Below, piece by piece: positions 9,122 to 57,485 of a stretch of DNA of 64,000 nt. The translations under genes and the position numbers were made by a program. The stretch is from NCBI GenBank assembly GCA_963797185.1, contig CAWCON010000001.1, positions 7,580 to 71,579 of the forward strand. The letters run 5' to 3'. Numbering within the stretch: position 1 is the first letter of the stretch; every line of letters begins with the position of its first letter. Origin of the DNA: an uncultured Candidatus Saccharibacteria bacterium (GTDB lineage Bacteria; Patescibacteriota; Saccharimonadia; Saccharimonadales; UBA4665). The notes beneath the pieces were generated by a model, which was not told the DNA's origin, did not search any database, and saw nothing but the letters and a program-made list of their open reading frames with translations.

Positions 9122-9975
9122 TGAGGACAGATGTGCGTACCACGGCCAGCTACCCTCTGTTTAATAATCACTGAACCGCAACGCGGACAGGTCTGCCCTT
9201 CTCGTCTAAAAACTCGCGCAAAGAGTAAGTAACTACCTTTCTTACCTTCAACATTAATATAATTACGGTCAGTTGAACCACCTTTTTCGATTGACAGTCT
9301 TAAGACCGCTCTCAGTTCCTTGTAAAGAGTTTTGATTGCGCTCGCCGGTAGTTGCCCAACAAGCGTTGTCGGGTGAATTTTCGCACCCCACAAACTTTCG
9401 TCAGCATATATATTACCGACTCCGGCAATGACCGTTTGATCAAGCAAAGCTGCTTTAATGTTTGTCTTAGATCGACGCTGCAGTCTTTTAGCGAAATCCT
9501 GCCAAGTGAAATCCTCAGCTAGCGGTTCCGGCCCCACCTTTTTAAAAAAGTCTATGTTCGGTACTTCACTGGTTGGAAATAACTTTACCCAACCAAACTT
9601 TCGTTGATCATTAAAGAACAACGTACTCCCATCGGCGAAAAAAAATATTACTCGAGTCGAGGAGTCAGGCAATTCACCTACTAAACTCTTGTTAGGGTGC
9701 CCAGCTCCAAAATGATTCGTATCATCACGGTAAACAAGCTGCCCTGTCATTTTGAGATGAATGATCAAGCTGTATTTACTATCCAGTTCAATGAGTAAAA
9801 CTTTCGCCCGTCGCTTAATCGATATAATACTAGCACCAAGCAAGAAATTATCGACATCCGCCTGATTATTTGGGAAACTTTTCGTGTTCGTGACTTCAAC
9901 TCGGGCAATCCGTTTCCCGATTATAAATCTTGTGAGACCTATTCTGACTGTCTCAACCTCTGGCAACTCCGGCAT
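9103..9975 (-). CDS. mutM: Formamidopyrimidine-DNA glycosylase (Fpg/MutM)
   Basis: Start trimmed to ATG 9975 so the protein begins MPELPEVE; the catalytic Pro2 must be N-terminal. The C-terminal zinc finger is CPRCGSVIIKQRVAGRGTHICPHCQ. Confidence 0.9.
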   Translation of the reverse strand: MPELPEVETVRIGLTRFIIGKRIARVEVTNTKSFPNNQADVDNFLLGASIISIKRRAKVLLIELDSKYSLIIHLKMTGQLVYRDDTNHFGAGHPNKSLVGELPDSSTRVIFFFADGSTLFFNDQRKFGWVKLFPTSEVPNIDFFKKVGPEPLAEDFTWQDFAKRLQRRSKTNIKAALLDQTVIAGVGNIYADESLWGAKIHPTTLVGQLPASAIKTLYKELRAVLRLSIEKGGSTDRNYINVEGKKGSYLLFARVFRREGQTCPRCGSVIIKQRVAGRGTHICPHCQKRK

Positions 9976-35553: not shown

Positions 35554-38151
35554 ATGAAGTTATCAAAGACTTACGAACCATCAGAGTACGAGCAGGATAT
35601 CTATGCTCTATGGGAAAAGCAACAGGCTTTCGCCCCAGAAGGGGAGGGGCAGAGTTTCAGCCTTGTTCTGCCACCACCAAACGCTAACGGCTCTCTTCAT
35701 CTCGGGCAGGCTCTGACCGTTGGGCTGGAAGATATTGCCGTACGGTATCACCGCTTATTGGGTGAGCGGACTCTGTTTGTGCCCGGTGCTGACCATGCAG
35801 GTTTTGAGACCTGGGTGGTTTACGAGAAGAAGCTGGCGGCAGAAGGGAAGAGTCGTTTCGACTTCAGTCGAGAAGAGCTGTACGGCCAAGTCTGGGATTT
35901 CGTTGCCTCGAACCGTGAAAAGTTTGAAACGCAGCTAAGACGCTTCGGTGCCAGTACTGACTGGCAACACTTTACCTTCACCTTAGATGAAAAAATTGTC
36001 ACCCGAGCCTACGCTACCTTTAAGAAAATGTTCGATGAACATCTAATATACAGGGGTGAGCGATTAGTAAATTTTTGCACTTTTCACGGAACAAGCTTCT
36101 CTGACATAGAAGTAAAGTTCAAAGAAGAGCAGGGTATGCTGTGGTACATTCGATATCCGTTATCAGATCAGAAAGGCGAGATTATTATCGCCACAACAAG
36201 GCCAGAGACAATGCTCGGAGACACTGGTATTGCAGTACATCCAGACGACCCTCGCTACCATGCATTCGTCGGCAAAACGGCCAAATTACCCCTAGTAGGA
36301 CGCGATTTGCCAATTATCGCCGACGAGTTTGTTGATAAAGCTTTTGGAACTGGCGCCGTCAAACTTACCCCGGCTCACGACCCAAATGACTACGACGCTG
36401 CCAAAAAACATCACTTGCCGATGATCACGGTAATCACTCATGACGGTAAAATAGGGGGAGACGTACCGGATAAATATCGAGGATTAAGCGTTCTTGATGC
36501 TCGAAAGAAGATTATTGAAGACCTAACAGCACAAGGACTTGTCGTTAAGCAAGAGGAGATTACTCATAGCGTGGGGCATTGCTACAAATGCGACACCGTT
36601 ATTGAGCCGCTACTGAGCGAACAATGGTTTATAGATATGCAACCGCTGGCTCAGAAGGCAATTGCTGCCCTAGAGAGCAATCAAATTACTTTCTATCCTG
36701 CCACCAAAAAGGCACAACTCATCTCATATATGAAGCAACTGAAAGATTGGAACATTAGCCGGCAGATAGCGTGGGGCATTCCTATTCCGGCCTTTCAAAA
36801 CGTCGACGATCCTGATGACTGGATATATAACGAGCAGGTTGAGCATGAGCTCATAACGATCGGTAATAAAACATACCGTAGGGATCCAGACGTTTTCGAC
36901 ACATGGTTCTCTAGCTCATCATGGCCATATGCTACCCTTAACTTCCCCGACAGCCAGGACTTCAAAGACTTCTTTCCGTTAAGCCTTATGGAAACCGGTG
37001 GTGAAATTTTATATCCATGGGTATCCCGGATGATTATGCTTGGGTTGTACGTAACAGAGAAGGTTCCTTTTGAATCTGTCTATATTCACGGCTATGTGCT
37101 TGCCGAAGACGGCTCAAAAATGAGCAAAAGTATCGGTAATGTAATTGACCCCTTAGAAATTATTACCAAGTTCGGTTCAGATGCCCTCCGCATTGGACTC
37201 ATTAATGGTAGAGTCCCCTCGGTAAACAGAGGCTACGATCCGCGCAAAGTCGAAGAGGGGCGTAACTTCTGCAATAAACTCTGGAATATTGCCCGTTTCA
37301 TAGAAGATAGGGCAGATATCAATTTTAAACAGGCAGAGCATCCAAAAAGCCAAACACCGGCCGATCATTGGATATTGACTAAATTACAACATACTATCAG
37401 CGAAGAAAGTGAAGATCTGGCACATTATCGCTTTAGTGAAGCCTACGAACGTCTCTACCACTTTGTGTGGGATGATTTTGCAGACTGGTATATTGAAGCA
37501 TCAAAGCAGGAACCTAATCTTAGCATCTTGGGCACTTGCCTAGTTGCAATACTCAAGTTAGCTCATCCTTTTGCACCATTTGTGACAGAAACGATCTGGC
37601 AGACACTCGGATGGGAAACCAATTCGTTGCTGGCCACGAGCCGCTGGCCTGAAGTTCCCGGTGGAGATCCGGAACGTTATCAGGAGTTCGAAGAAGTAAA
37701 GAACATTATTACAGAGATGCGATATGTTATTAACACTCTACACCTCAAGAAGACAAAGTTGCACTATATCGCACCCCAGCACGTCAAGGAAAACTCTAAG
37801 CTAATCGAGCGTCTGACCAAGGTTGAAACGGTGACAGAAGTTCAGCTAGGTCCTGGCCTTCGTCTCGTCAATAACCCTTACCAGTGCTGGCTTGATGTTG
37901 ATAGTAAAACCATGAAAGAGTACATTGCTACCTTGGCAAAAAAAGAACAGCTCCAAGAAACGCTTGTCGCGAAGCTACTCGCTCGACTTGCAAATCCAAG
38001 CTATACAGCCAAAGCTCCCCAAGAGGTTATCGAGCAAACCAAAAAAGATATCTCTGATGCTCAGATAGTACTTGAGACTATTAAGCAGGAACACCAGCGG
38101 TTTGTTCCGCAACAGACGGTGAAGCCAACGGAGCCTCAGCCACAGGAGTAA
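35554..38151 (+). CDS. valS: Valine--tRNA ligase
   Basis: Track ORF of 865 aa with a PPPNANGSLHLGQA HIGH region, KMSKSIGN, a CP1 editing domain and a coiled-coil C-terminus. Confidence 0.97.
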   Translation: MKLSKTYEPSEYEQDIYALWEKQQAFAPEGEGQSFSLVLPPPNANGSLHLGQALTVGLEDIAVRYHRLLGERTLFVPGADHAGFETWVVYEKKLAAEGKSRFDFSREELYGQVWDFVASNREKFETQLRRFGASTDWQHFTFTLDEKIVTRAYATFKKMFDEHLIYRGERLVNFCTFHGTSFSDIEVKFKEEQGMLWYIRYPLSDQKGEIIIATTRPETMLGDTGIAVHPDDPRYHAFVGKTAKLPLVGRDLPIIADEFVDKAFGTGAVKLTPAHDPNDYDAAKKHHLPMITVITHDGKIGGDVPDKYRGLSVLDARKKIIEDLTAQGLVVKQEEITHSVGHCYKCDTVIEPLLSEQWFIDMQPLAQKAIAALESNQITFYPATKKAQLISYMKQLKDWNISRQIAWGIPIPAFQNVDDPDDWIYNEQVEHELITIGNKTYRRDPDVFDTWFSSSSWPYATLNFPDSQDFKDFFPLSLMETGGEILYPWVSRMIMLGLYVTEKVPFESVYIHGYVLAEDGSKMSKSIGNVIDPLEIITKFGSDALRIGLINGRVPSVNRGYDPRKVEEGRNFCNKLWNIARFIEDRADINFKQAEHPKSQTPADHWILTKLQHTISEESEDLAHYRFSEAYERLYHFVWDDFADWYIEASKQEPNLSILGTCLVAILKLAHPFAPFVTETIWQTLGWETNSLLATSRWPEVPGGDPERYQEFEEVKNIITEMRYVINTLHLKKTKLHYIAPQHVKENSKLIERLTKVETVTEVQLGPGLRLVNNPYQCWLDVDSKTMKEYIATLAKKEQLQETLVAKLLARLANPSYTAKAPQEVIEQTKKDISDAQIVLETIKQEHQRFVPQQTVKPTEPQPQE

Positions 38152-39745: not shown

Positions 39746-39838
39746 TGGCGGAGAGGGAGGGATTCGAACCCTCGATACCGTATAAAGCGGTATACCGCTT
39801 TTCGAGAGCGGCACCTTCAACCACTCGGACACCTCTCC
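39746..39838 (-). tRNA. tRNA-Ser (anticodon CGA), CCA encoded
   Basis: Manual cloverleaf: acceptor GGAGAGG/CCTCTCC, anticodon stem CCGCT/AGCGG with loop CTCGAAA, a long variable arm, a GAGGG-TTCGAATC-CCTC T-arm, and a 3' GCCA. Confidence 0.9.
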
Positions 39839-39920: not shown

Positions 39921-39996
39921 GCGCCCGTAGTTCAGCGGATAGAATGTCGGCTTGCGGAGCCGGAGGTCGCAGGTTCGAATCCTGCCGGGCGTACCA
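39921..39996 (+). tRNA. tRNA-Arg (anticodon GCG), CCA encoded
   Basis: Manual cloverleaf: acceptor GCGCCCG/CGGGCGT (G1-U72), D arm GTTC..GAAT, anticodon stem TCGGC/GCCGG with loop TTGCGGA, T arm GCAGG-TTCGAAT-CCTGC, and a 3' ACCA. Confidence 0.88.
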
Positions 39997-40950: not shown

Positions 40951-43827
40951 TTAACCGACACTAAGACGCATTAGCCTTAAGTTCTGACCTCCGCCACCTG
41001 TAGATGATGACGATCCTCCACTTGGGGCTTGGTAAACCTGCCATTCAGCACCCTGAAAAGCCTGATTAGCAGAGTTGAAAGTTGAAGAATTGTTGCCTAT
41101 GGTAGCAGCGGCAGAGTCGGGTTCTCCGGCGAGACTCGTCTGAGTCACTACCAACTTAAGCTTGGTAGCAGCACCGCTCAAAGAGAAGCTACCAGCAAAG
41201 GCTGAGGCATGATCCCACCAGGTAGTGCGCACTGCAGGGTCGACATTGCCGGGCGTTCCCGGAGCAGCCACTGAAACAGCGGTAGCATTTGAATAAGAGT
41301 AAACTGTGGTGTCAGATCCCCCAATAGTAGCAACAATCTCAAAGGCAATCGGTGCCGAGGCGCCATAGTTTTTACCCGACTGGCTCAGTAAACTAGGATT
41401 CCATGGAGGAACACCCTTTAGGGCAAAGATATAGCTACCAGCAGCAACGGTACCGCCAGAGCTGCCAAAGTTTGAGGCAACAACCGAGGCGGGAATTGTA
41501 GCATCGAAATAAGGCGCGCCCGGTGAAGGCGGATCGTTGATATAGTTATGCCCCCAGCTACCGCTTCCTATAGGACTAACTGAAGCTGATGATTCGTTAA
41601 CGAGCGTCTCCGCCGTCTGAACCAGGTTAGCCTGTACGTTTGCCACGCTGATTATATTGGAGCCCGTGTCGACCACAGATACAGTAGTGCTAAGAGGAAG
41701 AAACACAGCGGTTACGAGATCATCTGTTGGCACCGTAATTTGAGTACCGGTGACCGTGACCATGACCGGAGTTCCAAAGCCATTCTGAGCAGTGGCGGCT
41801 GACGCAGCGCCGGAAGATCCGACATTGAGAGTAACAGTGTCGGCAGTGAAGGTGGAAGCCAGAAGTATAACATCTCGTGATAGGGATGAGCTACTGTAGT
41901 GCAGCCCCAAGAAATGGGTATCTCCAGGCGAACTAGCTGAGCCGAAAGACAACTGGGTGGGTTTCGAGGTAGGAGAACAAGTAGTACCCCTTAGTGCCTC
42001 ACTCATAACGTGCATAGCGACAGCACCCGCACGGATACTGCCACCCTCAATAAATCCGGACGGATCAGAGGGATCAGCCCCAACAACAGTGTCAAAGAAG
42101 TATAGATTCTCCTTAGGGAAGCCGTTAAGTTCACGCACCATCGCTAACTTTGTACAGTGAGCAGCATGACGACGCATGTGGTAAACACCATAATAACAGC
42201 CGTAGTTGCCAGTTTCGGTGTCCCAGAAAGTCAGGTGTGGCGAAGAGGAGGCAGCAATGGCGGTGCTGATACCCCCATAATCTTGACGCAATGAAACTAT
42301 ATCCGGTTGATTCTCGTAACTATTCTCATGGTGGCCGCTGGTGCCGTTAAGACTCGTTGCATTAATAACGGCAGTAAATTCTGATGCCGAAGAATTATTA
42401 TAGATTCCGCCCGAGCAGTAGCCAATTAGCTTGGCGCTGGAATCAGCAGCCAAAATTGCAGTTGCGTCGGTGTTAATACCAGAAATGATGTTTGCTTGAC
42501 TCCACCCCTCATCCTCGGGTTCATTGGTTGGCACCTCATACGTCGCGCCACTGAAACCATTTGTTACCATCTGACTGACGAAGGTGCCGTATTGTGCGGC
42601 TGTTGGGCTTTGATATGTTCCTGAGGTACTAGTAGCGAGCCATAAGGTATGGGGTCGTGCTGAGTCGAGACCTGGTCCTTGGAAGTAGGGATCGCTCGCA
42701 TAGTTAGAAGCAATTTGAGAAGCCGATGATTGGGGCCAACTGTACTGACCGCGATCCTGGGCGGTACCCATCCAGGCGCAGAGTGCGAAACTATTGCCAG
42801 TGCTGACGGTATAGCCTTCGGCTACTGGATCAAAGCCTTGGGGAGTCGCTCCAACATAGAAATAGCAACCAATAGGTTGGGGACTAGTAACAAAGCTACC
42901 GGAAGCACCGGCAACGGTAGCATGCTGGAGAACTAATACATTACCTACCGTGTGTGGACTGACGTTAACAACGTACGAAGACGCGCCACTAGAGGAGTTG
43001 CCATTCGTCCACACGCCAACATGAGACATTGAGATCGAGCCAGTACCACTGGCTCCAAGAATAACTCCCGTGGCGTAGCTAACTCCTGCTGATGCCTGCG
43101 AGCAAGTCGGTGAAGTAGTGCCTGAAGAAAGATTAAGATTATAACAAAAGGCAGCTGGATTGGCGCCTGTTCCATTTTGAGGCGTATAGGTATATCCACT
43201 CGTACTGCCAGCGCTTATCGTCGAACCCCCACCTTCGGCACACCCTACATAGAGCTGATTATTAGCGGTAGCTGTAAGGGAAGGGAATGCTACCGTCGTA
43301 CTCGATCCATTTGTGACAACACTACTGTTAATCTGAGCCCAGGTAGGCGAAGATAGACCTGAAGAGAACTCATCTATCTCAGCGCTCCACAACTGAGCGC
43401 CAGGGATACCTGATACATAAAGAGGAATGTTCGATCCCGTAGTAGTGACTTCACCCCACCAAATTTCTTCATCATTCTGACCGCTGGTGGGAGCTGAAGC
43501 TTGGTGCCAAGTAGCAACACCGCCACCTTGTACCGATGGCGCAGATTGGTTAACGACAAACTGATAATCATCGATCCCAACAGAGCCACCACTAACCCAA
43601 ACTCCTGATGTGGCGACAGTAATCTGGCTGACAGTTGTGGCGCATGTACCACTGGCCACTGTTGCTCCACTGCTGTTGTAAACCGTCCAAGATGTGGCGC
43701 CAATCGGGTACAAACCATCAGAAACTCCGCCTTGACCATAGCCATTAATAACAATGGTCGGCGTGTCGGCGTGTCGGTAAATCCCTTCCCACGCGTTGGC
43801 AGTAACGGTGACAGTATAGGCAGACAT
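40951..43827 (-). CDS. Large Ser/Thr/Gly-rich protein with a central clan GH-A-like glycoside hydrolase signature and a discoidin/CBM-like C-terminus; no signal peptide
   Basis: Track ORF of 958 aa. YEVPTNEPEDEGW (aa 430-442) resembles the acid/base NEP motif. FWDTETGNYG (aa 534-543) resembles the nucleophile TE motif, about 100 aa downstream. The C-terminus has AEWQVY. Confidence 0.55.
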   Translation of the reverse strand: MSAYTVTVTANAWEGIYRHADTPTIVINGYGQGGVSDGLYPIGATSWTVYNSSGATVASGTCATTVSQITVATSGVWVSGGSVGIDDYQFVVNQSAPSVQGGGVATWHQASAPTSGQNDEEIWWGEVTTTGSNIPLYVSGIPGAQLWSAEIDEFSSGLSSPTWAQINSSVVTNGSSTTVAFPSLTATANNQLYVGCAEGGGSTISAGSTSGYTYTPQNGTGANPAAFCYNLNLSSGTTSPTCSQASAGVSYATGVILGASGTGSISMSHVGVWTNGNSSSGASSYVVNVSPHTVGNVLVLQHATVAGASGSFVTSPQPIGCYFYVGATPQGFDPVAEGYTVSTGNSFALCAWMGTAQDRGQYSWPQSSASQIASNYASDPYFQGPGLDSARPHTLWLATSTSGTYQSPTAAQYGTFVSQMVTNGFSGATYEVPTNEPEDEGWSQANIISGINTDATAILAADSSAKLIGYCSGGIYNNSSASEFTAVINATSLNGTSGHHENSYENQPDIVSLRQDYGGISTAIAASSSPHLTFWDTETGNYGCYYGVYHMRRHAAHCTKLAMVRELNGFPKENLYFFDTVVGADPSDPSGFIEGGSIRAGAVAMHVMSEALRGTTCSPTSKPTQLSFGSASSPGDTHFLGLHYSSSSLSRDVILLASTFTADTVTLNVGSSGAASAATAQNGFGTPVMVTVTGTQITVPTDDLVTAVFLPLSTTVSVVDTGSNIISVANVQANLVQTAETLVNESSASVSPIGSGSWGHNYINDPPSPGAPYFDATIPASVVASNFGSSGGTVAAGSYIFALKGVPPWNPSLLSQSGKNYGASAPIAFEIVATIGGSDTTVYSYSNATAVSVAAPGTPGNVDPAVRTTWWDHASAFAGSFSLSGAATKLKLVVTQTSLAGEPDSAAATIGNNSSTFNSANQAFQGAEWQVYQAPSGGSSSSTGGGGQNLRLMRLSVG

Positions 43828-43915
43828 TAATGTAGCCCTGTGGACGTAATCAGGTTTGCTGCGCTCATCTTATCAACCCTCACGTAAGCTGTTTTGCTAC
43901 CACAGCGGCTCACCA

Positions 43916-45808
43916 TTAGATATTCTGTCCTCGAATAGAGGCGATCCAATTAGTACCGTCATCACAGTGAAACGTAAAAGAATCCATCTTGTTTGCAGCG
44001 GTCGTAAGCGTTGGGGCAGAGCCACCAGGCCACTTAAGACTACCAAACCATGTAACGGTACGTGAACCAGTACCATCTTGGAGTAAATCAAGATCAAACC
44101 ATACACCAACGCCAGCAGTTGGAGCCGTAAGAGTACAGTTGGCAGTTAGTTCAAGGTAGTTAATTTGCGCCGCCAAGAGTGTTTGGGTTGTCCCAGAGCT
44201 AGCCACTGTATGAACTGTCTGTGTTCCCGTATAAGCAGCTACAACATCCCAAGTATTAGCGGCAGTTTGAACAGCAACTAATGTGCCGTATTGAGACATG
44301 ACGGTCAGAGAACCATGCACAGTAACTCCAGCGCCAGCAGCCACGGTCAGAGAACCAGTGCCAACTTGACGGAAGACCGCCATAGAGCCAACCGGAGCAT
44401 CTACTGAACTGTTTGGTGGGATAGTAACCGTACCCGCAGAGCTAGAGTTGTAATCCCCCTCGGCTCCTATATCAGTTGCAGATAATGTCCAGCCAGATGA
44501 ATAGCTGTTGATAGTAACTGGTGTTTGTGGAATCTGATCCAAGGGAGTGTCATCAGTTAAAACATACCAGATTGCAGATGATGTTGTGTATTGAAGTATG
44601 GCACCTTGATGAAGAAGTTGCAGAGTTAAACTGGTAGCACCTGATACGATATTAAAAACATCACCACCACTAGCGCTAATCGTCAGCGTGTTGCCAAGCG
44701 TGCTCTTAATAATCTTTACCCCGATCTGGGATTTATCAGAAGGAGCATGCGGTAAGGTGACGGTAACGCTTGCACTCGACACATCAACGGGCACAAAATC
44801 TCCAACACTTGCATTATAGGCGCTCGTTTTAACAGCAGTGGGTGCTAGCTCTGAAGCAGCTGAAGGTGTCGCCCAGGTAGCTGCAGAGCTACTACTGGCA
44901 GTAATGACTTGGCCGGAGGATGGAGTACCAGTAACTGCTACTCCATTAACCTTAGCCACTGTAGGAGAAGGCAGAGTACCACTAAGGTCTCCACCAGCTG
45001 TGGAGGAGATGGTAGCGGCTGTTCCTAGTCCTAAGTTTGTTCTGGCAGTGGAAGCTACTGCTACATCAGATAAGTTATTACTGGCTTGTAGAAGTCCAGT
45101 CACTGCACCAGTCATACCATCAACTGAGGATACTGCTCCACCTCCACCTGATGGTGTAGCCCAGGTAGCAGCTGAGGATGAGGAGGCAGTAATAACCTGG
45201 CCGGAGGATGGAGTACCAGTAACTGCTACTCCATTAACCTTAGCAACCGTTGGAGATGGAAGGGTGCCTGAGAGATCTCCACCAGCAGTAGAGGAGATGG
45301 TAGCTGCGCTACCAAGACCGAGGTTTGTGCGGGCAGTAGAAGTACTCGCTAGATCACTTAGGTTGTTAGCCTTCTGAGCTGCTCCAGCTACCGTAGTATT
45401 AGCAGAGATGATAGCCTCTACGTTAGTAGAGTTAGTGATAGTTGGAGTCGTAGCCGTACCAGCAAGATCACCAGCGAGTTGAATTAAGCCTGGGGTACTG
45501 GTAGTAGCATTGTTGACGGTAGTACTGGATACCGTACTCGGTATCCAGCTATTGCTGGAACTGTTATAGGCCAGTACTTGGCCATTACTGGCAGAAGAAG
45601 CGGTGGTGGTATCAGCCAGATTAGTTAGTTTAAGACTGAGGGCTCCACTGGTAGGAGTAAGCGAATTAATACTAGTGATAGCTCCTGCTGATTGGAGGGC
45701 AGTGGTAGAGAGGGTGCCATCAGTGTTTAACGAGACTCCGAGGAAACCATTGAGGATAGATCCCCAAGTGCCATCATCACTACCTGGTATTGGAAGTCGT
45801 TGGGTCAT
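43916..45808 (-). CDS. Phage-tail-fibre-like protein with an internal tandem duplication; no signal peptide
   Basis: Track ORF of 630 aa. The N-terminus LPIPGSDDGTWGSILNGFL and the twice-repeated NNLSD...ARTNLGLG motif are characteristic of tail-fibre and minor-tail proteins. Confidence 0.6.
   Translation of the reverse strand: MTQRLPIPGSDDGTWGSILNGFLGVSLNTDGTLSTTALQSAGAITSINSLTPTSGALSLKLTNLADTTTASSASNGQVLAYNSSSNSWIPSTVSSTTVNNATTSTPGLIQLAGDLAGTATTPTITNSTNVEAIISANTTVAGAAQKANNLSDLASTSTARTNLGLGSAATISSTAGGDLSGTLPSPTVAKVNGVAVTGTPSSGQVITASSSSAATWATPSGGGGAVSSVDGMTGAVTGLLQASNNLSDVAVASTARTNLGLGTAATISSTAGGDLSGTLPSPTVAKVNGVAVTGTPSSGQVITASSSSAATWATPSAASELAPTAVKTSAYNASVGDFVPVDVSSASVTVTLPHAPSDKSQIGVKIIKSTLGNTLTISASGGDVFNIVSGATSLTLQLLHQGAILQYTTSSAIWYVLTDDTPLDQIPQTPVTINSYSSGWTLSATDIGAEGDYNSSSAGTVTIPPNSSVDAPVGSMAVFRQVGTGSLTVAAGAGVTVHGSLTVMSQYGTLVAVQTAANTWDVVAAYTGTQTVHTVASSGTTQTLLAAQINYLELTANCTLTAPTAGVGVWFDLDLLQDGTGSRTVTWFGSLKWPGGSAPTLTTAANKMDSFTFHCDDGTNWIASIRGQNI
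44861..45370 (-). repeat. Intragenic tandem duplication with a 288-nt (96-aa) period inside the fibre-like gene
   Basis: Residues 148-219 and 244-316 differ at 4 positions. A 47-nt stretch is identical at 44910-44956 and 45198-45244, while the flanks are recoded. Confidence 0.9.
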
Positions 45809-45847
45809 GTATACCGTATATAATCTTCTTTGCTTTAAAGATTCCCT

Positions 45848-45874
45848 CTTATGCTGCTTTTAGAATAGCATAAG
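45848..45874 (-). terminator. Hairpin between the 329-aa gene and the fibre-like gene
   Basis: CTTATGCT-N11-AGCATAAG forms an 8-bp stem. There is no clear U tract, so it may be an attenuator or a processing site. Confidence 0.3.
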
Positions 45875-45969
45875 CGAGAGAAGAATGGGTACCAATAAAT
45901 TCGCAAGACGTCGTTAACCACCTAAAGTGGTGTAATAAATATAAATAATGGTAACTACGAAGGATTAAG

Positions 45970-46959
45970 TTAGGTACTTATTTCAAGATGTCGCCGTAAT
46001 GAATCAGCTATTCTTGGATTGCTCATTGCTTCCTGTAAAACACTGACCGTCAATCCAACCTCGATAAGGTGTGCTTGAGCCGTGCGAGCCGCTTGATTAT
46101 CACCAATAACCCGAAATGACCCAATAGATTCACGTAGGTCATCAACTGCCCGTAAATTATTCATCACCGCCATTGTTCCATAATGGGTACTTGTGACATG
46201 GATAATGTTACTACCAGCTAGTCCGAATTCATCTCCGACTACTCCCGGATTATTAACGAGTGCTTGGTACGCATTAAAAACACCTGTCTGCTTTGAGCCA
46301 TCTGATCGTAGTGCTGGCGTCGTTGCCAGAACCACCATTGAAGCTCCGCTAGGATGACGCATGCGCAAAAACGCTGAACCATCAGGCAAAAAACGTACAC
46401 CATAACGATTGCCTGACAATGGTTCGAAACCTTTAACGATTGCAGAGTCAACAAATAGCTCTAATTCGTTAGTGGCTTCTGGCGCAAAGCCCGCTACCGT
46501 CTCACGCTCCTTACTTGACAAAACACGTCGTGGGTCAACGGTTGCTACAATAGGTTGTTCCTCTAAGCCATGAGCTTCAACATAACTAAGGGCTGTTTCT
46601 ATACGCTCCTTATTAGCATTATTGGCTGCACCGACGACATTTAGTAATGTGTTTGGTAAATGCTGCAGGTGAGCTACCTCTTCACGTGCGAAGATAACTG
46701 GTCCACCACCACGCATTTGCAGTTTATCGCTTAAGCCCATTACGTCAGACTCAGCACCTTCTGGCACCTTTAGGGCAGGTATCCCGGTAACGTTAGAGGA
46801 CCAAAGAGCCACCATAGTTGCCGGATTTGCATCATTAGCATCCTCCGGCAGTTTTCCTGCTTGAAGACGCCATCTCTCTACCCGTACACCACTTCTGGCC
46901 ACATCGGGGTGCAATAGTGGTGCGATATTAAAGACATCTTCAGAGGATGCCGCAGCCAT
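45970..46959 (-). CDS. Hypothetical protein (329 aa), first large gene of the fibre cluster
   Basis: Track ORF with no recognisable motif, no signal peptide and no TM helix. Confidence 0.6.
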   Translation of the reverse strand: MAAASSEDVFNIAPLLHPDVARSGVRVERWRLQAGKLPEDANDANPATMVALWSSNVTGIPALKVPEGAESDVMGLSDKLQMRGGGPVIFAREEVAHLQHLPNTLLNVVGAANNANKERIETALSYVEAHGLEEQPIVATVDPRRVLSSKERETVAGFAPEATNELELFVDSAIVKGFEPLSGNRYGVRFLPDGSAFLRMRHPSGASMVVLATTPALRSDGSKQTGVFNAYQALVNNPGVVGDEFGLAGSNIIHVTSTHYGTMAVMNNLRAVDDLRESIGSFRVIGDNQAARTAQAHLIEVGLTVSVLQEAMSNPRIADSLRRHLEIST

Positions 46960-46970
46960 CCGCTCAGTTA

Positions 46971-47099
46971 CTACAGTGTAGAGGATAGACCGGGGTCCTT
47001 TAATTCAATTAAAAGAGGACGAGCAATTTGGCTTGCAACCTCTACGGAAACCTGACAAGCCTCTGGCTGTCCTGCTAATTGTTCAGTACTGCTAATCAT
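46971..47099 (-). CDS. Possible 42-aa leader ORF
   Basis: Own translation: MISSTEQLAGQPEACQVSVEVASQIARPLLIELKDPGLSSTL. It ends 11 nt before the 329-aa ORF start. A TATAAT box lies upstream on the minus strand. Confidence 0.25.
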   Translation of the reverse strand: MISSTEQLAGQPEACQVSVEVASQIARPLLIELKDPGLSSTL

Positions 47100-47192
47100 T
47101 ATTCGCTATACCTTTACTATGGAAATCCATCTGATTAATGAGAATCTACCTAGCATAATTATACCATCAGATAGCTGATCATAGCTATAATA

Positions 47193-47221
47193 TTGACATT
47201 TGAACAAGCTTGTGTTAATAA
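47193..47221 (+). promoter_or_regulatory. Sigma-70-like promoter for the 47251 gene
   Basis: TTGACA (47193-47198), a 17-nt spacer, then TAATAA (47216-47221). Confidence 0.45.
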
Positions 47222-47250
47222 TTACAGGTCCTTTTTTAAAACAAAAAATT

Positions 47251-47610
47251 ATGTCAGCCAACAATCAAGAATCACCACAGTCACAACAACGAATATCGAA
47301 CTCGTTACGCGTAGCGATTAGCATGGCAGCTTTGGCTAGTCTGCAGACACCGAACATAGGAGAAGAATCAGTAATCCAGTCCCAACCAGCTGCTGTTGCT
47401 TCCGCATCTCCCGAACTGACAAGTCTAGACGAAACTGCCTCCATGATTAACTCGTTTCCAGCTGAGGCCCCGAGTGCTGGTGCTTCGGACATGACGCTAA
47501 ACCCTTCTCTGCATATCAACCTTAACTCAACAGGTGAGCTAGCTCACGAGCAATACGTTTCTCCGGGCGACATACCAGCTACAGCTCAAGAGTATATGGA
47601 CAACAACTAA
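47251..47610 (+). CDS. Acidic, low-complexity hypothetical protein
   Basis: Track ORF trimmed to ATG 47251 (MSANNQESPQ...); 119 aa, Ser/Ala/Glu-rich. Confidence 0.45.
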   Translation: MSANNQESPQSQQRISNSLRVAISMAALASLQTPNIGEESVIQSQPAAVASASPELTSLDETASMINSFPAEAPSAGASDMTLNPSLHINLNSTGELAHEQYVSPGDIPATAQEYMDNN

Positions 47611-47758
47611 AGTTGCCTATAAAGCGGTTGTTAATGACGGCAAACTCCAGTTTGTACCCGAGAACAACTCAAGCCAAAACCCTAGTTCATAACGACAAGA
47701 TCCTTCAGCTTTATTCAGCCTATCAAGGTTCAAATGTACGTGTAATATACTGCTCTCT

Positions 47759-49124
47759 TTAATATCGAGGTTGATGTAATGACGGTACGGGAGCGACCGG
47801 TCGCGCGGGACGAATAACCATCGTTGGGAATTGTGGGTTTGCATTATTCAGCTGGCCTGGAAGCGGCGGGTAGTTACTATAATTTGTAGTCTGGACAATA
47901 GACGGTTGGTTTTGTAAATCATAATCTAACCTGTCGTTAGCTGCCAGTCTCTTTTTCGTCAACATTCGTGCCACAAAGGAGCCAATTATTATCAGCAAAA
48001 GAAAGCTTGAGAAACTAATACCAGCTACATAAAAAGCTGTTTTCTTCGAGTTTAGTGGTTTTGTGGGCTGCACCTTTAAGGTCTGGATTGGTGCAACGGT
48101 TACAGGAGTTGTCGTAGTGGCTTGGGGGCTTACGATGGGCTGCGAAGTCGGGGCTGGAGTTGAAGTCGGGGCAGTAGTCTTAGTGGTCGATGCCGGTGGA
48201 GTGGTGTGTGTTGGAGTAGTTGCAACCGGCGTAACAGGAGGTTGATTGATATTCTGCCATAAATATCCGGCCGAATGACAGCGGGGCGTCGAACCCCCAA
48301 TGACAAAATCCACATAGCCACCAGGACTCTCGGCATAGATATCAGAATTCGGCATTGTCGAATAACTGCTGACGGCACTATTCGGTACAAGGCCACCATT
48401 GGCAGTTATCTCTAAATTAACGTGCCACAGCGGTACCGGATAGAGAGTATCGCCATTATTATCCCAGAATTCCGTCCATGATCCCGCCGCCATCGTGGAA
48501 ACTGGCAGGGACGCTGGCGTTAGCTCGCGGGAATCGTATGCTGCCGATATACTGCTCAGCTTGACCGGGGAAAGTTATATAGTAAGCAAACCAATCGCCC
48601 GTTCCGTCATAGTTGGTTCGCACCATCCTGACTCCATACTGTCCAGTAGGAAGATCGCCAAAGTTGTGTCTGAGGCTGATGAATTGGGACCCCGTCTCTG
48701 TGCCGTTTGTTTCGGTCGATCCGGGTCCAAGTTCGATGTTGCTCAAATCAGACGTGTTCCACTGCGAGAATATGGCCATTCCAGTAGTTTGCAGTCCAAA
48801 ATACTGTCCAGTGTTATCAATATTAGCGTCATACAGCTGCAAGTATTCATCGCTAGTACTGCCGGGATCGTTTAGTATATTAATCTTATACTGCAAAGAG
48901 GAAATACTTTGCGAAGTGTCAAAATCCCAGTTAGTGTATGTCATACCACCGACAGGCGGTGGCGGGTAGTTTGTCGGAGACACACAAGCACTGGCATCGA
49001 GGCTGTCGCTAATGTGAACAACTTTAATCGACAATGCAGAGAATACTAGAACCCCTATACCTAAACCAAACAGTGTGAGGTTGGCAATTGTAGTAATCTC
49101 GTGTTTTAGATTTTTTATTTTCAT
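47759..49124 (-). pseudogene. DUF3472-like surface protein split by a 1-nt frameshift (paralog of 49221-50300)
   Basis: Track ORFs 48459-49133 and 47759-48493 overlap in different frames. Homology to the neighbouring paralog continues across the junction. Removing one G from GGCGGCGGG (48483-48491) restores ...PASFHDGGGSWTEFWDNNGD... Confidence 0.55.
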
Positions 49125-49220
49125 TACTAACAAGCCTACTATACCATTACCGTTCTGAATTTTCTCCCTTAGACAAAGTCAATTTTTTCCTACTACGTAC
49201 TGGCTAGCGAGGATACCTTG

Positions 49221-50300
49221 CTAATATTTTTTTCGTCGGTATACGCTCAATCCCCAACGACAATCCATATATAAGGCAACCGCTGCAATAATGATCAAAG
49301 AGTACACGGTAATACGCTCAGTTTGAGACACTCTTTTTGTATTCTTCAATTGAATGGTCTCGGGCTTGCTGACACTTTGAGCGCTCATTGGGGATTTAAT
49401 TGGCGTAGGTGATGGTGTCGATACTGCCGGGCTAGGCGTGGTAACGACGGGCGTTGTGATGGTTGGAGCGGGTGATGGCGTTGGTTTCGGGCTAGCAGGG
49501 AGTGACGGTATCGCAGCGGCCGGGAATTGACCACCGATAATAGTCTCTATACCACCGGCTATGTCTCTCGTAGCAAAGTCAGCAGCACACGCCGAGTTAG
49601 TTGGCGCCACATTACTATGCGAAGAGGGAGTTACTGCCCCATTATTCGCCGTTAGGTTTGTGAACTTTACCTCCGACAAAATCAAACTTCCGCAACTGCT
49701 TGTATCACCGGCGTACCGTTCGTGAAATGTATAGGATTGATCGAGTAAATTACCCATACTAGTGGGAGTAACGATATTACCGACCAGCGATTGCACACCG
49801 CTTGTTTGATCTATGACGGTAGCGGTCCAGGTGTTACCGCCAGAGGATTGGCTTGTTAAAGCTATTCGGATGTCGTAGGTGTTATTAACTGTCCATGGGT
49901 AGGAGATTCGGGACGTATAGTATGTCGCTCCAACCTCAGTTCCTGAGGCGTTATAGCCGGGCCCACTAGAAGAGGTAGCTCCCCAGATAGAGAAGACAGC
50001 AATTTTACCGGTAGGATTATCGCCTTCGGTTTGCAAACCCATATAGCCGCCATACCCCTGTGGGTCACCCGTGAACCAAAAACCTGAAGAGAAATAATAG
50101 CCATCAGGTGATCCATCGGCTTCAGGAGTTATATCGGTATCCAACTGCGTGTAACCACTTGGAGCGTTGGGCCACGTCCAGTAGGTATCATCAAAATGGG
50201 TTGGGTCCGTAAGCGGGTCAGCATATACCGGTAAGCGGAGGCCTGCGCTTGTTAGTAGTGCCAAGAACAAAATAAGAATACAACGTTTTAGAATAGTCAT
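49221..50300 (-). CDS. Surface protein: signal peptide, DUF3472-like domain, Pro/Thr linker and C-terminal TM anchor
   Basis: Track ORF of 359 aa. Signal peptide MTILKRCILILFLALLTSAGLRLPVYA; DUF3472-like motifs GGYMGLQTEG..KIAVFSIWGA and YTFHERYAG; linker PKPTPSPAPTITTPVVTTPSP; TM helix VYSLIIIAAVALY followed by RRKKY. Confidence 0.7.
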   Translation of the reverse strand: MTILKRCILILFLALLTSAGLRLPVYADPLTDPTHFDDTYWTWPNAPSGYTQLDTDITPEADGSPDGYYFSSGFWFTGDPQGYGGYMGLQTEGDNPTGKIAVFSIWGATSSSGPGYNASGTEVGATYYTSRISYPWTVNNTYDIRIALTSQSSGGNTWTATVIDQTSGVQSLVGNIVTPTSMGNLLDQSYTFHERYAGDTSSCGSLILSEVKFTNLTANNGAVTPSSHSNVAPTNSACAADFATRDIAGGIETIIGGQFPAAAIPSLPASPKPTPSPAPTITTPVVTTPSPAVSTPSPTPIKSPMSAQSVSKPETIQLKNTKRVSQTERITVYSLIIIAAVALYMDCRWGLSVYRRKKY

Positions 50301-50406
50301 TATTGATTTTATACGCTAGTGATGCTTTTGATTATACAGTTATGTATACAGATGGATATATGTTTTGGCTGTGGGCTCATGACTGAGGTCGGTTGTCACG
50401 GGCTTT

Positions 50407-50463
50407 AATCTTTTTCGCTGTTTACAGCTCATCAGCACCGCTTATATGATCGGTGGAAAGATC
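50407..50463 (-). ncRNA. Type III hammerhead ribozyme motif
   Basis: Minus-strand RNA: AGAUCUUUC/CACCG-AUCAUAUAAG-CGGUG-CUGAUGA-GCUG-UAAA-CAGC-GAA-AAAGAUU. The canonical core (CUGAUGA, GAA, A15.1-U16.1, C17) is present with all three stems. Folded by hand. Confidence 0.65.
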
Positions 50464-50593
50464 TTCCGGAAAGGCAGGTTTGGCATACGATGCCAACGCC
50501 TACCCTACCGGGCGACACCAGAGTTACCTGGTATCTAGACCTTAAACAACTCAAGTACATTTGCTCTGAATAGCACCTTAGACGGGCACTTGA

Positions 50594-52228
50594 TTAGTGC
50601 TGGTCGAAAACACGAGCCTCGGCATCCGGCATCCATGCTAAAGTAGTCCCTCGACTTCGACAGACTACCTTAACCTCGGTATCGGCCTTGGAGACTTTTT
50701 CAGGCGTCGAAGTATAGGTTGCCTGAATTAAGCCAAGACCAGTATCGGCTAACACCATGGGGGCATCGGGCTTCACGAAGAAGCTATCGCTTGACGCAAC
50801 GCCATTTCGCAAGTCATGACCATGCGCCTTTGCCTTATCAACGGCATAGATGCAGGCAGTTACCCGCGATTGTTGGCCGGCACTATTACCGACTAGCTGT
50901 CCTTCGTTAACCAAGGTAATGGTATTGCTATTACTGGTGGCACAGATAGCCGAAGCCATCACGACGTCCAGCTGTTGCTGCTCCGTTAACAGCTCGCCGA
51001 TAACTTCCAGCCGATCCAATGGCAACACAAAGGTGTTGGCCGGCTGCATTAGGAAATCACCACCCACAAGCTCTCGTCTTACCATGCGGCGGTCAAGCGT
51101 TTCCATCGACAAATTTGCTAAAGCGGGGTTGACCGTCATAACGTATTTGCCGTCACGGCGGGCTGCGATCGCCTGGGCAATTGGTTCAATGTCCGGCGCA
51201 CATATGCCGTCAAAAATCCTGGGGGGATCACCTTTCGGCACGCCGTAGTAGCGCAAGACTTTCGCAAGCTCCTCGTCAATCGGGAAGTTTGTCATCAGGA
51301 TCGACCCGAATACGGATTGCGGGTCGCCCATGACCGTCTTTTGCAAAACACTAACCGGATCGCTGCCAAAGGCCGCCCCACAGGCATTGCCATGCTTAAC
51401 GGCCACCGCCATTAGCGGAACCGTACCGAAATTGTAGTCATGACCTGCAGCCATTCTGGTGATGGTCCGGATAACTCGGTTCATATCCGTATAGTTGATA
51501 TAGCTTGGCTGCCGACCGTCCACGAGCCTAAAGTTCGTAACTGCAAGTGGATAAGTGTTATTCGGATTGCGGAACAAGTAAGCAGGTGTCTGATAGCGAT
51601 TCTCGCCATAGTCACAAACCGCCACTCGCTCTCCGAACGAAGCCACTAACTCACCGGACGACAGGAATTCCGCTGAGACCATCCCATATTGCGCCACCGT
51701 AAACTCACCGTAAGCTGCCAGTTGACGAAGAAATTCTTCAGTTATTTCTTCGCCTGAGCGCAATTTTGCAACGACGCTCTCGAATTGCGCGTCATTCGTC
51801 ACGACAATTCGTCGGCCCTTAGCGCCTGAACGAATCATGGCAGGCCCGCCGATATCGGTTTTAGCAGTCACTGATTCTTCAGTAGCCTTAGGATTGGCGA
51901 TCTCTTCAGCGAGAGGATAGGGATCCACATATACCAAGTCGATATACGGTGCTCCCATTCCCTCAAGCGCCCGAAGGTCGGCCTCAATAGTAGCTCGAGA
52001 CAGTAGTCCGCCATGGATTTCACGAGACAAGGTTGAAACGCGACCGTCCATAACCTTTTCGCCAACGATGGTTTGGATATCTACAACGGCTATCCCAGCT
52101 GCCTCTAACTCCTTTGCCGTTCCTCCTGATGCATACAGTCGCCAACCGAAGTTAAACAATGTTCGGGCACCAGCAAAAAACTTATCGGTCTTGTGATAAA
52201 CCGACAGCAATGCATTCTTTTGAGTCAT
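50594..52228 (-). CDS. purH: Bifunctional AICAR transformylase / IMP cyclohydrolase-like protein (divergent PurH)
   Basis: Track ORF of 544 aa. N-terminal MGS-like domain (ALLSVYHKTDK...SGGTAKEL...GRVSTLSREIHGG...DIGGPAMIRSGAKG). AICARFT motifs YGENRYQ, VKHGNACG, SNSNTI and AGQQSRV. Confidence 0.88.
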   Translation of the reverse strand: MTQKNALLSVYHKTDKFFAGARTLFNFGWRLYASGGTAKELEAAGIAVVDIQTIVGEKVMDGRVSTLSREIHGGLLSRATIEADLRALEGMGAPYIDLVYVDPYPLAEEIANPKATEESVTAKTDIGGPAMIRSGAKGRRIVVTNDAQFESVVAKLRSGEEITEEFLRQLAAYGEFTVAQYGMVSAEFLSSGELVASFGERVAVCDYGENRYQTPAYLFRNPNNTYPLAVTNFRLVDGRQPSYINYTDMNRVIRTITRMAAGHDYNFGTVPLMAVAVKHGNACGAAFGSDPVSVLQKTVMGDPQSVFGSILMTNFPIDEELAKVLRYYGVPKGDPPRIFDGICAPDIEPIAQAIAARRDGKYVMTVNPALANLSMETLDRRMVRRELVGGDFLMQPANTFVLPLDRLEVIGELLTEQQQLDVVMASAICATSNSNTITLVNEGQLVGNSAGQQSRVTACIYAVDKAKAHGHDLRNGVASSDSFFVKPDAPMVLADTGLGLIQATYTSTPEKVSKADTEVKVVCRSRGTTLAWMPDAEARVFDQH

Positions 52229-56006: not shown

Positions 56007-57485
56007 CTACTTGGAAGCTAAGACTTTCGCTCTACTATCCTTACTGAGAGTAACCGGTACTTCCGTTGGATAGATGCCCGTCATGCAGCTCATACACAAC
56101 GCTCCGATATGCTGTTCTGATTTGTCGTTTTGACTTTCAATACCTTCGATAACGCGTTCGAGGCTTAAAAATTCTAGGGAATCGGCTCCAATGTATTCAC
56201 GTATTTCTTCGATGCTTTTTTTGTGGGCAATCAGCTGTCCAACGTCATGTGTATCCATCCCAAAGTAGCAGGGCCAAGCATAGGGTGGTGAAGGAATGCG
56301 TACATGTACTTCCGCAGCTCCCATATCCCTGACCGACGACACTAACTGCTTCGTTGTAGTGCCTCGTACGATCGAATCGTCAACCAGCACAATACGTTTA
56401 CCGTCAATCATGCTGCGGTTTGGCTGGTGCTTCAGCCGGACTGACTGCACGCGAGTCATCTGATTTCCTTCAATAAAGGTGCGGTTAATATATGGGTTCT
56501 TAGTGATCGCCAATTCCTCAGGAATACCAGTTTGATGAGAATACCCACGCGCATACAGCGCACCTGAGTTTTGAACCCCGACTACCATATCAGCCTCTAC
56601 GGGATGATCAGCACCCAAGAGCCTTCCTAACTGTTCTCTGACTTTATAAACGTTTCTGCCAAGTAGTAAACTATTTGGGTGAGAAAAATAGATGTACTCA
56701 AACATACAAAAACTTTCTTGAGGCTCTGCCGATAGCTTTTCCGAGCGCAACCCATCTTGCTCAACTATAATAATTTCTCCCGGCTCAACATCTCGTATAA
56801 ACTCAGCCCCTACCACATCAAAAGCAATCGTTTCTGAAGCCAGCATGGTACCGCCATTTGGCAGCTTACCGATTGACAAAGGCCGATAGCCTCGGGGATC
56901 CCGCACGCCGATTAAGCGGTTAGGTTCGTTAATAACCAGATTAAATGCACCCTCCAGCGTCGGTAATAATACGTGTATTGCTTCAACAAGATCGCCTCGT
57001 TCCTGGTACATTTCATCAAGCAAATGAGTAAGAGATTCACTGTCACTTTCGCAGTCGCTGACATCGAATCCTAGCCTTTTGGCTGTTTCGCCGATACCTT
57101 CCATATGACCATTATGCCCGAGTGCAAATCTCCCGCTTGGTGCCGGAAAAGGTTGCGCGAGTCGAGCATTTTCCTTTGAAGATGTTTTACCTGAGGTACT
57201 ATAGCGATCATGACCGATAAGTGCCGGACCTGTTGCCTGATACATCAACACCCGTAAGTTTTCATCCTTTAAGGCCTCCGTCACAAGACCGCTATTCTTC
57301 TCTATGTGAAGATCGGCTCCATTAAATACAGCCATGCCCGCACCAGTTTGGCCGCGGTGCTGTAGAGCCTGCATCCCATCAAAAACCGTATGAACAGTAT
57401 CATTGAGTGCGTATATACCGATTAGTCCGCAAGCTTCGCCGGGTTTATCAGACTCAATAGATGATAGTTGTTCCAGGTCTGTTAT
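56007..57485 (-). CDS. purF: Amidophosphoribosyltransferase (Fe-S type with propeptide); non-canonical start inferred
   Basis: The track ORF begins at ATG 57374 (MQALQHRGQ). The in-frame upstream sequence encodes ...GEA-CGLIGIYALNDTVHTVFDG-, i.e. the catalytic N-terminal Cys. GGAGGG lies 6 nt before ATA 57485. Fe-S ligand motifs are WPCYFGMDT and CMSCMTGIYP. Confidence 0.85.
   Translation of the reverse strand: MTDLEQLSSIESDKPGEACGLIGIYALNDTVHTVFDGMQALQHRGQTGAGMAVFNGADLHIEKNSGLVTEALKDENLRVLMYQATGPALIGHDRYSTSGKTSSKENARLAQPFPAPSGRFALGHNGHMEGIGETAKRLGFDVSDCESDSESLTHLLDEMYQERGDLVEAIHVLLPTLEGAFNLVINEPNRLIGVRDPRGYRPLSIGKLPNGGTMLASETIAFDVVGAEFIRDVEPGEIIIVEQDGLRSEKLSAEPQESFCMFEYIYFSHPNSLLLGRNVYKVREQLGRLLGADHPVEADMVVGVQNSGALYARGYSHQTGIPEELAITKNPYINRTFIEGNQMTRVQSVRLKHQPNRSMIDGKRIVLVDDSIVRGTTTKQLVSSVRDMGAAEVHVRIPSPPYAWPCYFGMDTHDVGQLIAHKKSIEEIREYIGADSLEFLSLERVIEGIESQNDKSEQHIGALCMSCMTGIYPTEVPVTLSKDSRAKVLASK

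Follow-up and report, generated by a model that had tools for sequence, protein, structure and literature searches.

A type III hammerhead ribozyme with an accessory upstream hairpin, conserved after purH in a Saccharibacteria-like bacterium

A type III hammerhead ribozyme is encoded on the minus strand, at positions 50463-50407, of the 64,000-nucleotide (nt) stretch of contig CAWCON010000001.1 analysed here, which we call the window and which derives from an uncultured Candidatus Saccharibacteria bacterium. The ribozyme lies in the spacer between purH, on its upstream side, and a gene for a DUF3472 surface protein, on its downstream side, and it is directly preceded by a long hairpin. Ribozyme and hairpin are both present after purH at an orthologous locus in a second genome. 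We have very little doubt that the element is a true hammerhead that is under selection. Regarding its role, we consider the chances about even that hairpin and ribozyme together form a terminator-independent device that makes the 3′ end of the purH mRNA and uncouples the downstream transcript.

When read base by base, the minus strand from 50463 to 50407 contains every invariant nucleotide of a type III hammerhead as well as its three helices, in the arrangement GAUCUUUC-CACCG-AUCAUAUAAG-CGGUG-CUGAUGA-GCUG-UAAA-CAGC-GAA-AAAGAUU. The parts of the element are as follows.

50407-50463, minus strand: the entire type III hammerhead ribozyme, 57 nt, identified from the sequence, the RF00008 alignment, the subfamily model R1 and the minimum-free-energy (MFE) fold.
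50457-50463, minus strand: stem III 5′ strand GAUCUUU, which pairs with 50413-50407 through six Watson–Crick pairs and one G-U pair.
50456, minus strand: cleavage nucleotide C17, placed relative to the core; scission is predicted between 50456 and 50455.
50436-50455, minus strand: stem I, CACCG/CGGUG, 5 base pairs (bp) with the 10-nt loop AUCAUAUAAG, from sequence reading.
50429-50435, minus strand: core C3-U4-G5-A6-U7-G8-A9 (CUGAUGA), from sequence reading.
50417-50428, minus strand: stem II, GCUG/CAGC with a UAAA loop and closing pair G10.1-C11.1, from sequence reading.
50414-50416, minus strand: core G12-A13-A14, from sequence reading and invariant in all aligned relatives.
50407-50413, minus strand: stem III 3′ strand AAAGAUU, with A15.1 first, from sequence reading.

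All of the closing pairs are present (G10.1-C11.1, C1.1-G2.1 and A15.1-U16.1), and the nucleotide at H17 is C, not G. In the bacterial survey of Perreault et al. 2011 (PLoS Comput Biol 7:e1002031; PMC3088659), candidates with broken invariant nucleotides or closing pairs were rejected. The helices measure 5 bp (I), 4 bp (II) and 7 bp (III), stems I and II being capped by loops while stem III is open, and the MFE fold of the isolated 57-mer is exactly this three-way junction. Loop 1 begins with AU and ends with AG, and thus has A as its second-to-last nucleotide, which matches the subfamily of relatives described below; loop 2 is the UAAA found in every subfamily member. No Watson–Crick pseudoknot between loops I and II is apparent by eye. 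An earlier note on this DNA had proposed a complete type III hammerhead at this site, and the proposal is borne out by the sequence, by a score of 68 bits with R1, by covariation in 16 relatives and by the orthologous copy. Its coordinates are right throughout, save that the leading A of the string it quoted is base 50464, not 50463, and it places the motif correctly, 130 nt from the stop codon of purH (50594) and 106 nt from the downstream ATG (50300).

Such an arrangement is rarely expected by chance. A descriptor that demands the core, GAA, three helices and a cleavage nucleotide other than G picks out the hammerhead site alone among the 19 CUGAUGA heptamers of the window. In 1000 dinucleotide shuffles of the window, searched on both strands, the descriptor gave a single match when stems of at least 4/4/4 bp were demanded and 20 matches at 3/3/3, compared with 5/4/7 in the real element. 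From these shuffles, the chance expectation is approximately 0.001 per window.

The Rfam results need some explanation. At gathering thresholds, a search of the whole window reported two tRNAs only, with no hammerhead listed, and a permissive search over the whole window also failed to list it. The permissive search of a short stretch (50300-50620, 321 nt) did find Hammerhead_3 (RF00008, clan CL00010), aligned over its full length at 50407-50463 of the minus strand with 34.4 bits and E = 6.5e-6; the miss in the longer input is presumably due to stricter speed filters. In related loci from phages and metagenomes, all 16 Hammerhead_3 matches that were scored also fall under the RF00008 gathering cut-off of 48.5 bits, at 27.6-46.9 bits. 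Because every one of these related natural matches scores below the cut-off, it is too strict for this group, and the low score is no evidence against the motif. The sub-threshold value is a property of the model and not of the sequence, and a cut-off is an annotation threshold rather than a defining feature of the class. The earlier note had named a covariance-model score below threshold as refuting its claim; in form this applies to Rfam’s cut-off, of which the element falls short along with the 16 matches in related loci, and the element scores 68.0 bits with a model built from its own subfamily.

Relatives of the element were retrieved with the pattern CTGATGAGNNNTAAANNNCGAAA, which specifies the core, a 4-bp stem II of any sequence and a UAAA loop, and which was scanned over IMG/VR and a metagenome collection. 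It matched 67 loci in the former and at least 120 in the latter, and about four in five of the matches listed are complete hammerheads of type I or type III. The 4-bp stem II with its UAAA loop accordingly recurs in at least about 190 phage and metagenome pattern matches, among which the stem covaries. The type III copies among the matches listed split into two groups. One is mostly phage-borne and has a 7-bp stem I (NNNNGAU-GUGU-AUCNNNN) and a stem II of the form NNC-UAAA-GNN. The other, to which the window copy belongs, combines a stem I of 5 bp with a loop 1 that measures 8-13 nt and runs from AU to A(A/G), and its stem II is of the form GNNG-UAAA-CNNC. A pattern specific to this loop 1, ATCATATAAGNNNNNCTGATGAG, gave no matches in viral contigs.

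Sixteen distinct members of the window copy’s subfamily among the matches listed were aligned with the window copy left out (alignment A2, which replaced a MAFFT alignment, A1, in which the members with long loop 1 were misaligned). In A2, 94.5% of cells are paired, a percentage that is partly ascertained because members were retrieved by core and loop II and then filtered on stems I and III; the diversity of pair types is not affected in this way, and 13 of the 16 pairs show changes on both sides. These values are not attained by any of 500 shuffles, and in slid controls only 22-50% of cells are paired. Stems I, II and III all covary, with double changes at five of five pairs in stem I. At the cleavage position the 16 aligned relatives carry C, U or A and never G. 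The covariance model R1, built from A2 and so without the window copy, assigns that copy 68.0 bits (E = 5.4e-17), which lies within the 67-72 bits obtained when its own training members are re-scored. The next-best R1 match in the window reaches about 16 bits. Two such matches, at 43048-43111 and 36684-36740 (E of about 0.04, about 16 bits), were rejected as hammerheads for their low scores, and in the former the core and stem II are also broken in the alignment.

Further evidence comes from a related purH locus. The closest purH homologue found, with 53% protein identity, is on a 650-kb Joint Genome Institute (JGI) contig (locus L013); the remaining hits are approximately 46% identical and come mostly from metagenome-assembled genomes (MAGs) of Patescibacteria. 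R1 finds a hammerhead in L013 with 45.6 bits (E = 6.4e-10), on the same strand as purH and located after purH and an intervening open reading frame (ORF) of 72 amino acids (aa). Its sequence is GAUCUUUC-CACUG-AGUAAUGAG-CAGUG-CUGACGA-GCUG-UACGGG-CAGC-GAA-AAAGAUC. Relative to the window copy, stem I reads CACUG/CAGUG in place of CACCG/CGGUG, a compensatory exchange of a C-G for a U-A pair, and stem III has an identical 5′ strand and an end pair changed from G-U to G-C. The sole difference in the core is U to C at N7, the only unconstrained core position, and loops 1 and 2 both differ. The comparison with related genomes that the earlier note called for reveals an orthologue that keeps the stems, with a compensatory change, and the core apart from N7.

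The two loci are 81% identical over the ribozyme and 74.5% over the hairpin, compared to 66% over the purH coding sequence and 60% over 60-nt flanks on either side, the last value being approximately that of unrelated sequence under the alignment scheme used. Only purH is common to both loci, and the downstream genes are unrelated. Retention of the hammerhead together with its hairpin across such deep divergence indicates that it is under selection at the purH locus. Directly after purH, L013 (6598-6816) and the next-closest purH locus, L203 (1797-2033), each carry a zinc-ribbon-like ORF of 72-78 aa (C..CGNLTRF...TCRWC) that is absent from the window. No hammerhead was detected by the descriptor, nor by R1 where it was searched, at 11 purH loci among GTDB species representatives, all of which are at most 46% identical and which come from Patescibacteria and other groups. 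A further purH-like locus (P0028) shows no synteny and gave no hit, and four loci with relatives of the window’s ValRS have no R1 match.

That the element might be a chance occurrence or an inactive fossil is, in our judgement, hardly credible. The Rfam score under the gathering cut-off could be read in this way, as could the modest stability of the isolated 57-mer, whose fold has a z-score of just -1.4. On the other side stand the expectation of about 0.001 per window, the leave-one-out R1 value (E = 5e-17), the orthologue with its compensatory changes, and a core without deviation from consensus.

A second alternative is that mobile or phage DNA left the ribozyme behind, or brought it along as a passenger, with no role for host genes. 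Bacterial hammerheads typically occur near integrases or prophages, often in clusters that flank genes (PMC3088659), related type III copies with UAAA loops are abundant in IMG/VR phage contigs, and a protein encoded 4.6 kb downstream of the window copy has tail-fibre-like C-terminal domains. The window copy is instead a single copy in 64 kb, with no flanking repeats and no integrase seen around it, and it resides in ordinary chromosome among genes for PNPase, DNA polymerase I, primase, RpoD, ArgRS, GroEL, MurE, ValRS and two-component systems. Its orthologous place after purH is kept in a genome whose purH is just 53% identical, and the neighbours of other subfamily members are likewise ordinary cellular genes, namely glpX, xanthine/uracil permease, alcohol dehydrogenase, SprT-like, Zincin_1 and rarA-region genes. 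The conservation of ribozyme and hairpin after purH points to selection that favours a host function, not a mobile element, and we consider the passenger explanation unlikely. The hint of mobile or phage DNA in the earlier note does not fit this core-chromosome setting. Nor does the tRNA-Arg-like repeat that it reported near the motif hold up: the best local match to tRNA-Arg (39921-39996) is 10 of 11 nt, which is equalled by 48 of 500 shuffles, and at the supposed site neither ARAGORN nor Rfam finds a tRNA and there is no repeat of at least 14 nt. The conserved hairpin occupies that place.

Two hairpins precede the ribozyme.

50466-50511, minus strand: long imperfect hairpin, CCGG-UAGGGUAGG..UUGGCAU-CGU-AUGCCAA..CCUGCCUUU-CCGG, from fold prediction; it ends 2 nt before the ribozyme.
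50514-50535, minus strand: short hairpin, GAUACCAGG-UAAC-UCUGGUGUC, located 5′ of the long hairpin and present in every fold of the region; another small hairpin occupies the equivalent place in L013.

The 60 nt directly 5′ of the window ribozyme, which hold the long hairpin, fold with -28.2 kcal/mol (z = -3.1), and L013 keeps the long hairpin (6851-6897), which there shows compensatory substitutions and has a re-made apical helix. In the permissive search of 50300-50620, neither hairpin matches an Rfam family. We considered whether the long hairpin could be an intrinsic terminator and rejected this possibility, since it has no U tract: the hairpin is followed by AAGAUCUUUCC, and a scan of 50200-50700 returned no terminator-like site on either strand, as well as no promoter-like site on the minus strand.

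This hairpin is not peculiar to the purH loci. For each non-redundant hammerhead copy, the 60 nt immediately 5′ were compared with the 60 nt immediately 3′, in a set that covers hammerheads with a UAAA loop II only, as demanded by the retrieval pattern, and that includes near-identical copies.

Type III, window subfamily (n = 22): mean z -3.2 upstream, -1.25 downstream.
Type III, phage subfamily (n = 53): mean z -2.4 upstream, -0.8 downstream.
Type I (n = 30): mean z 0.0 upstream, -0.3 downstream.

The distance from the hairpin to stem III is 0-5 nt in many type III members. Among loci L016-L202, the median start after a co-oriented stop codon is 1 nt for type I copies and 49 nt for phage type III copies, figures that depend on crude ORF calls and on counts inflated by near-identical copies; the 49-nt gap is room enough for a hairpin, and the phage type III copies usually have a small G+C-rich hairpin between the stop codon and the ribozyme. 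The hairpin belongs to the ribozyme module and is a recurrent trait of type III members. This asymmetry makes mechanistic sense, because, without an extra hairpin ahead of the ribozyme, the 5′ product of type III cleavage ends in a short single strand. The lack of an upstream hairpin before type I copies fits as well, as their 5′ product already ends in its own stem III hairpin.

From the established chemistry of hammerheads we infer self-cleavage in vivo, together with its consequences for the 3′ end and for RNA stability, and propose the following sequence of events. A polymerase reading past purH would transcribe the hairpins at 50535-50514 and 50511-50466 and then the ribozyme, which would fold into its three-way junction and cut its own backbone after C17, between 50456 and 50455. 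The upstream product would be a purH mRNA that ends in a stable hairpin followed by approximately 10 single-stranded nt and a 2′,3′-cyclic phosphate, an end that should resist 3′ exonucleases. The downstream product would start with a 5′-OH, carry the rest of the ribozyme and be physically uncoupled from purH. The earlier note had offered two roles, severing of purH read-through transcripts and provision of a defined 5′-OH end for the surface-protein mRNA. The former fits better, because purH accompanies the ribozyme and hairpin at both loci, whereas the gene that follows them differs.

Several observations weigh against a role in forming the 3′ end of purH mRNA, or narrow its reach. The locus L203, whose purH is 49% identical, has a hairpin and the small zinc-ribbon ORF but no hammerhead by R1. 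The orientation of neighbours in the subfamily is mixed, with upstream genes 7 co-oriented and 5 opposite and downstream genes 6 co-oriented and 8 opposite, by crude ORF calls; a role linked to 3′-end formation for the preceding gene is thus not universal in the subfamily. The hairpin statistics have the restricted scope given above. Finally, in the MFE fold of the full 293-nt spacer, the stem III 5′ strand is paired with 50543-50537 instead of with its partner in the ribozyme. This competing helix joins AAGGUCU (50537-50543) to AGAUCUU (50458-50464, overlapping the stem III 5′ strand) on the minus strand and closes a multiloop around both hairpins. The in-context ribozyme fold lies 0.5-3.5 kcal/mol from the minimum free energy in the window, and it is the MFE structure in L013. 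According to these fold models, the alternative pairing could slow, gate or regulate cleavage.

Another possibility is that the ribozyme serves the gene downstream, giving the DUF3472 surface-protein mRNA a defined 5′-OH end and a structured leader and insulating it from purH sequences in the manner of synthetic ribozyme insulators. The ribozyme is co-oriented with this gene and lies 106 nt before its ATG, and the spacer scan found neither a terminator-like site on either strand nor a promoter-like site on the minus strand. In addition, of the two copies in a subfamily locus named L137, one precedes a Zincin_1 gene by 25 nt and the other lies just ahead of a DNA glycosylase gene. We nevertheless find this role rather unlikely: purH is kept between the two orthologous loci and the downstream gene is not, 8 of the 14 called downstream neighbours in the subfamily are on the opposite strand, and a TATAAT box that separates the ribozyme from the ATG, at 50336-50331, could give the gene a transcription start of its own. 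This box is perfect, lies on the minus strand 3′ of the ribozyme and 31 nt before the DUF3472 ATG, has no good -35 element and was not called by the promoter scan. Judged from the sequence, the DUF3472 gene may have its own promoter there.

It could also be argued that the functional product is a small structured RNA, consisting of the two hairpins at 50535-50466, whose 3′ end is set by the ribozyme. The hairpin is conserved with compensatory changes, the hairpin before the second L137 copy is visibly similar in sequence, and some members are antisense to both neighbouring ORFs (for example, L176 and L200), as expected of independent small transcription units. This explanation is unlikely, in that hairpin sequences are unrelated across most members, the scan shows no promoter-like site upstream on the minus strand, and the hairpins match no Rfam family. 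Formation of the purH mRNA 3′ end by hairpin and ribozyme remains the role that we favor.

Multiple hammerheads per contig are found elsewhere among the relatives. L137 is a Saccharimonadales locus as judged by its RarA protein (82-84% identity) and has two hammerheads 1 kb apart, at 8290-8347 and 9333-9403, which bracket the Zincin_1 gene and a 128-aa ORF. The sequence similarity of the hairpin before the second copy to the window hairpin extends over GGTAGGG...TATGCCAAAACCT.GCCT. Two or more hammerheads within 0.5-3 kb, placed around one or two small genes, likewise occur in L148 (9149-9203 and 9601-9655), L017 and L019. A protein whose NCBI source is ‘Verrucomicrobiae bacterium’ (P0241) matches the L137 RarA query without a difference across the 94% that aligns, and the other named hits (82-84%) are from Candidatus Saccharimonadales or Saccharibacteria; the source of P0241 is probably a mis-binned or mislabelled MAG contig.

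Comparison with known systems identifies what is ordinary and what is less so in this element. The window copy is a canonical type III hammerhead, and all three topologies are already well known in bacteria and phages. It shares with the RF00008 consensus the same core and the three helices, with I and II capped, III open, 5 bp in stem I and 4 bp in stem II. It deviates from that consensus in its longer loop 1 (10 nt), its UAAA loop 2, the conserved accessory hairpin directly upstream and its score of 34.4 bits. Like the phage type III subfamily (IMG/VR loci L017-L082), it has type III topology, a 4-bp stem II capped by UAAA and a hairpin ahead of the ribozyme, but the phage copies have another architecture of stem I and loop 1, a C-G pair beside the UAAA loop where the window has G-C, and a phage context.

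The bacterial and phage hammerheads reported previously are intergenic and co-oriented with flanking genes, as is the window copy, and the proposal made for them is that they divide polycistronic transcripts into mRNAs of gene length; their role in bacteria was described as unclear, even though hammerheads are the most common self-cleaving RNAs (PMC3088659). Unlike those examples, the window copy stands alone and follows a housekeeping gene of a Saccharibacteria-like chromosome, and no pseudoknot between its loops I and II is evident by eye. Our full-text literature searches returned no paper linking hammerheads with Patescibacteria, the candidate phyla radiation (CPR) or Saccharibacteria, and one on hammerheads in connection with hairpins and terminators yielded no description of an upstream-hairpin association.

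Two other devices offer instructive parallels. RiboJ and similar synthetic insulators join a type III hammerhead, taken from the satellite RNA of a plant virus, to an added hairpin. RiboJ resembles the window module in combining a hammerhead with an accessory hairpin and in uncoupling adjacent parts of a transcript. However, the RiboJ hairpin is downstream and serves the downstream gene, whereas the window hairpin is upstream and would stay with the upstream product. An intrinsic (Rho-independent) terminator similarly provides a strong hairpin shortly after the stop codon that ends up at the mRNA 3′ end. In contrast to such a terminator, the window module has no U tract, and its 3′ end is predicted to arise through RNA self-cleavage rather than polymerase release.

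The genes that flank the ribozyme are the following.

50594-52228, minus strand: purH (AICAR formyltransferase / IMP cyclohydrolase), 544 aa, co-oriented upstream, with Pfam PF01808 (AICARFT/IMPCHase) and PF02142 (MGS).
49221-50300, minus strand: DUF3472 protein, 359 aa, with a hydrophobic N-terminus, co-oriented downstream, Pfam PF11958, with no homologue in L013.

The window ValRS is 63-65% identical to Candidatus Saccharimonadales proteins, with a best hit overall of 71%, and judging from such protein comparisons the host is a divergent Saccharibacteria-like (TM7/CPR) bacterium, for which the protein collection holds a single contig of 479 kb. The nearest named relatives of its purH are from other Patescibacteria, at about 46% identity. 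Alongside purH, this genome encodes a purF-like amidophosphoribosyltransferase (GATase_6/7) at 56007-57374. To our knowledge, Saccharibacteria usually lack de novo purine synthesis.

Downstream of the ribozyme, a run of minus-strand genes occupies 40951-50300, reaching as far as a tRNA pair near 39.8 kb. Most of these genes have no family match, and they include genes for proteins of 958 aa and 630 aa. The 630-aa protein, 4.6 kb downstream of the ribozyme, has a DUF5907 repeat along with the tail-fibre-like C-terminal domains, and its gene contains an internal 184-nt direct repeat (44897-45080 and 45185-45368, 80% identical). The G+C content rises to about 0.50-0.52 over 41-44 kb. The tRNA pair is divergent and comprises tRNA-Ser(CGA) at 39746-39838 on the minus strand and tRNA-Arg(GCG) at 39921-39996 on the plus strand. 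Weak Rfam matches to Plastid-psbl-rps4 and sX4 overlap the former and are probably artefacts of it.

The less ordinary points of this hammerhead are its host group, a housekeeping-gene context that is kept across deep divergence, and the accessory upstream hairpin. For annotation, the consequence is that the RF00008 cut-off misses every tested member of these natural subfamilies. The presence of the accessory hairpin on type III but not on type I copies suggests that the ribozyme makes a protected mRNA 3′ end, which is a testable model, and the value of the hairpin rule would rise considerably should an unbiased set of hammerheads bear it out. We put forward, tentatively, a broader possibility: that a hairpin combined with a hammerhead is a general means of ribozyme-based mRNA 3′-end formation in Saccharibacteria and phages and an alternative to terminators, in which type I ribozymes act at the stop codon with their own stem III hairpin and type III ribozymes act with an accessory one. 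As far as we know, and according to the literature searched, bacterial hammerheads have lacked a clear function ever since their discovery in 2010-2011. If true, general 3′-end formation of this kind would give them a concrete biological function.

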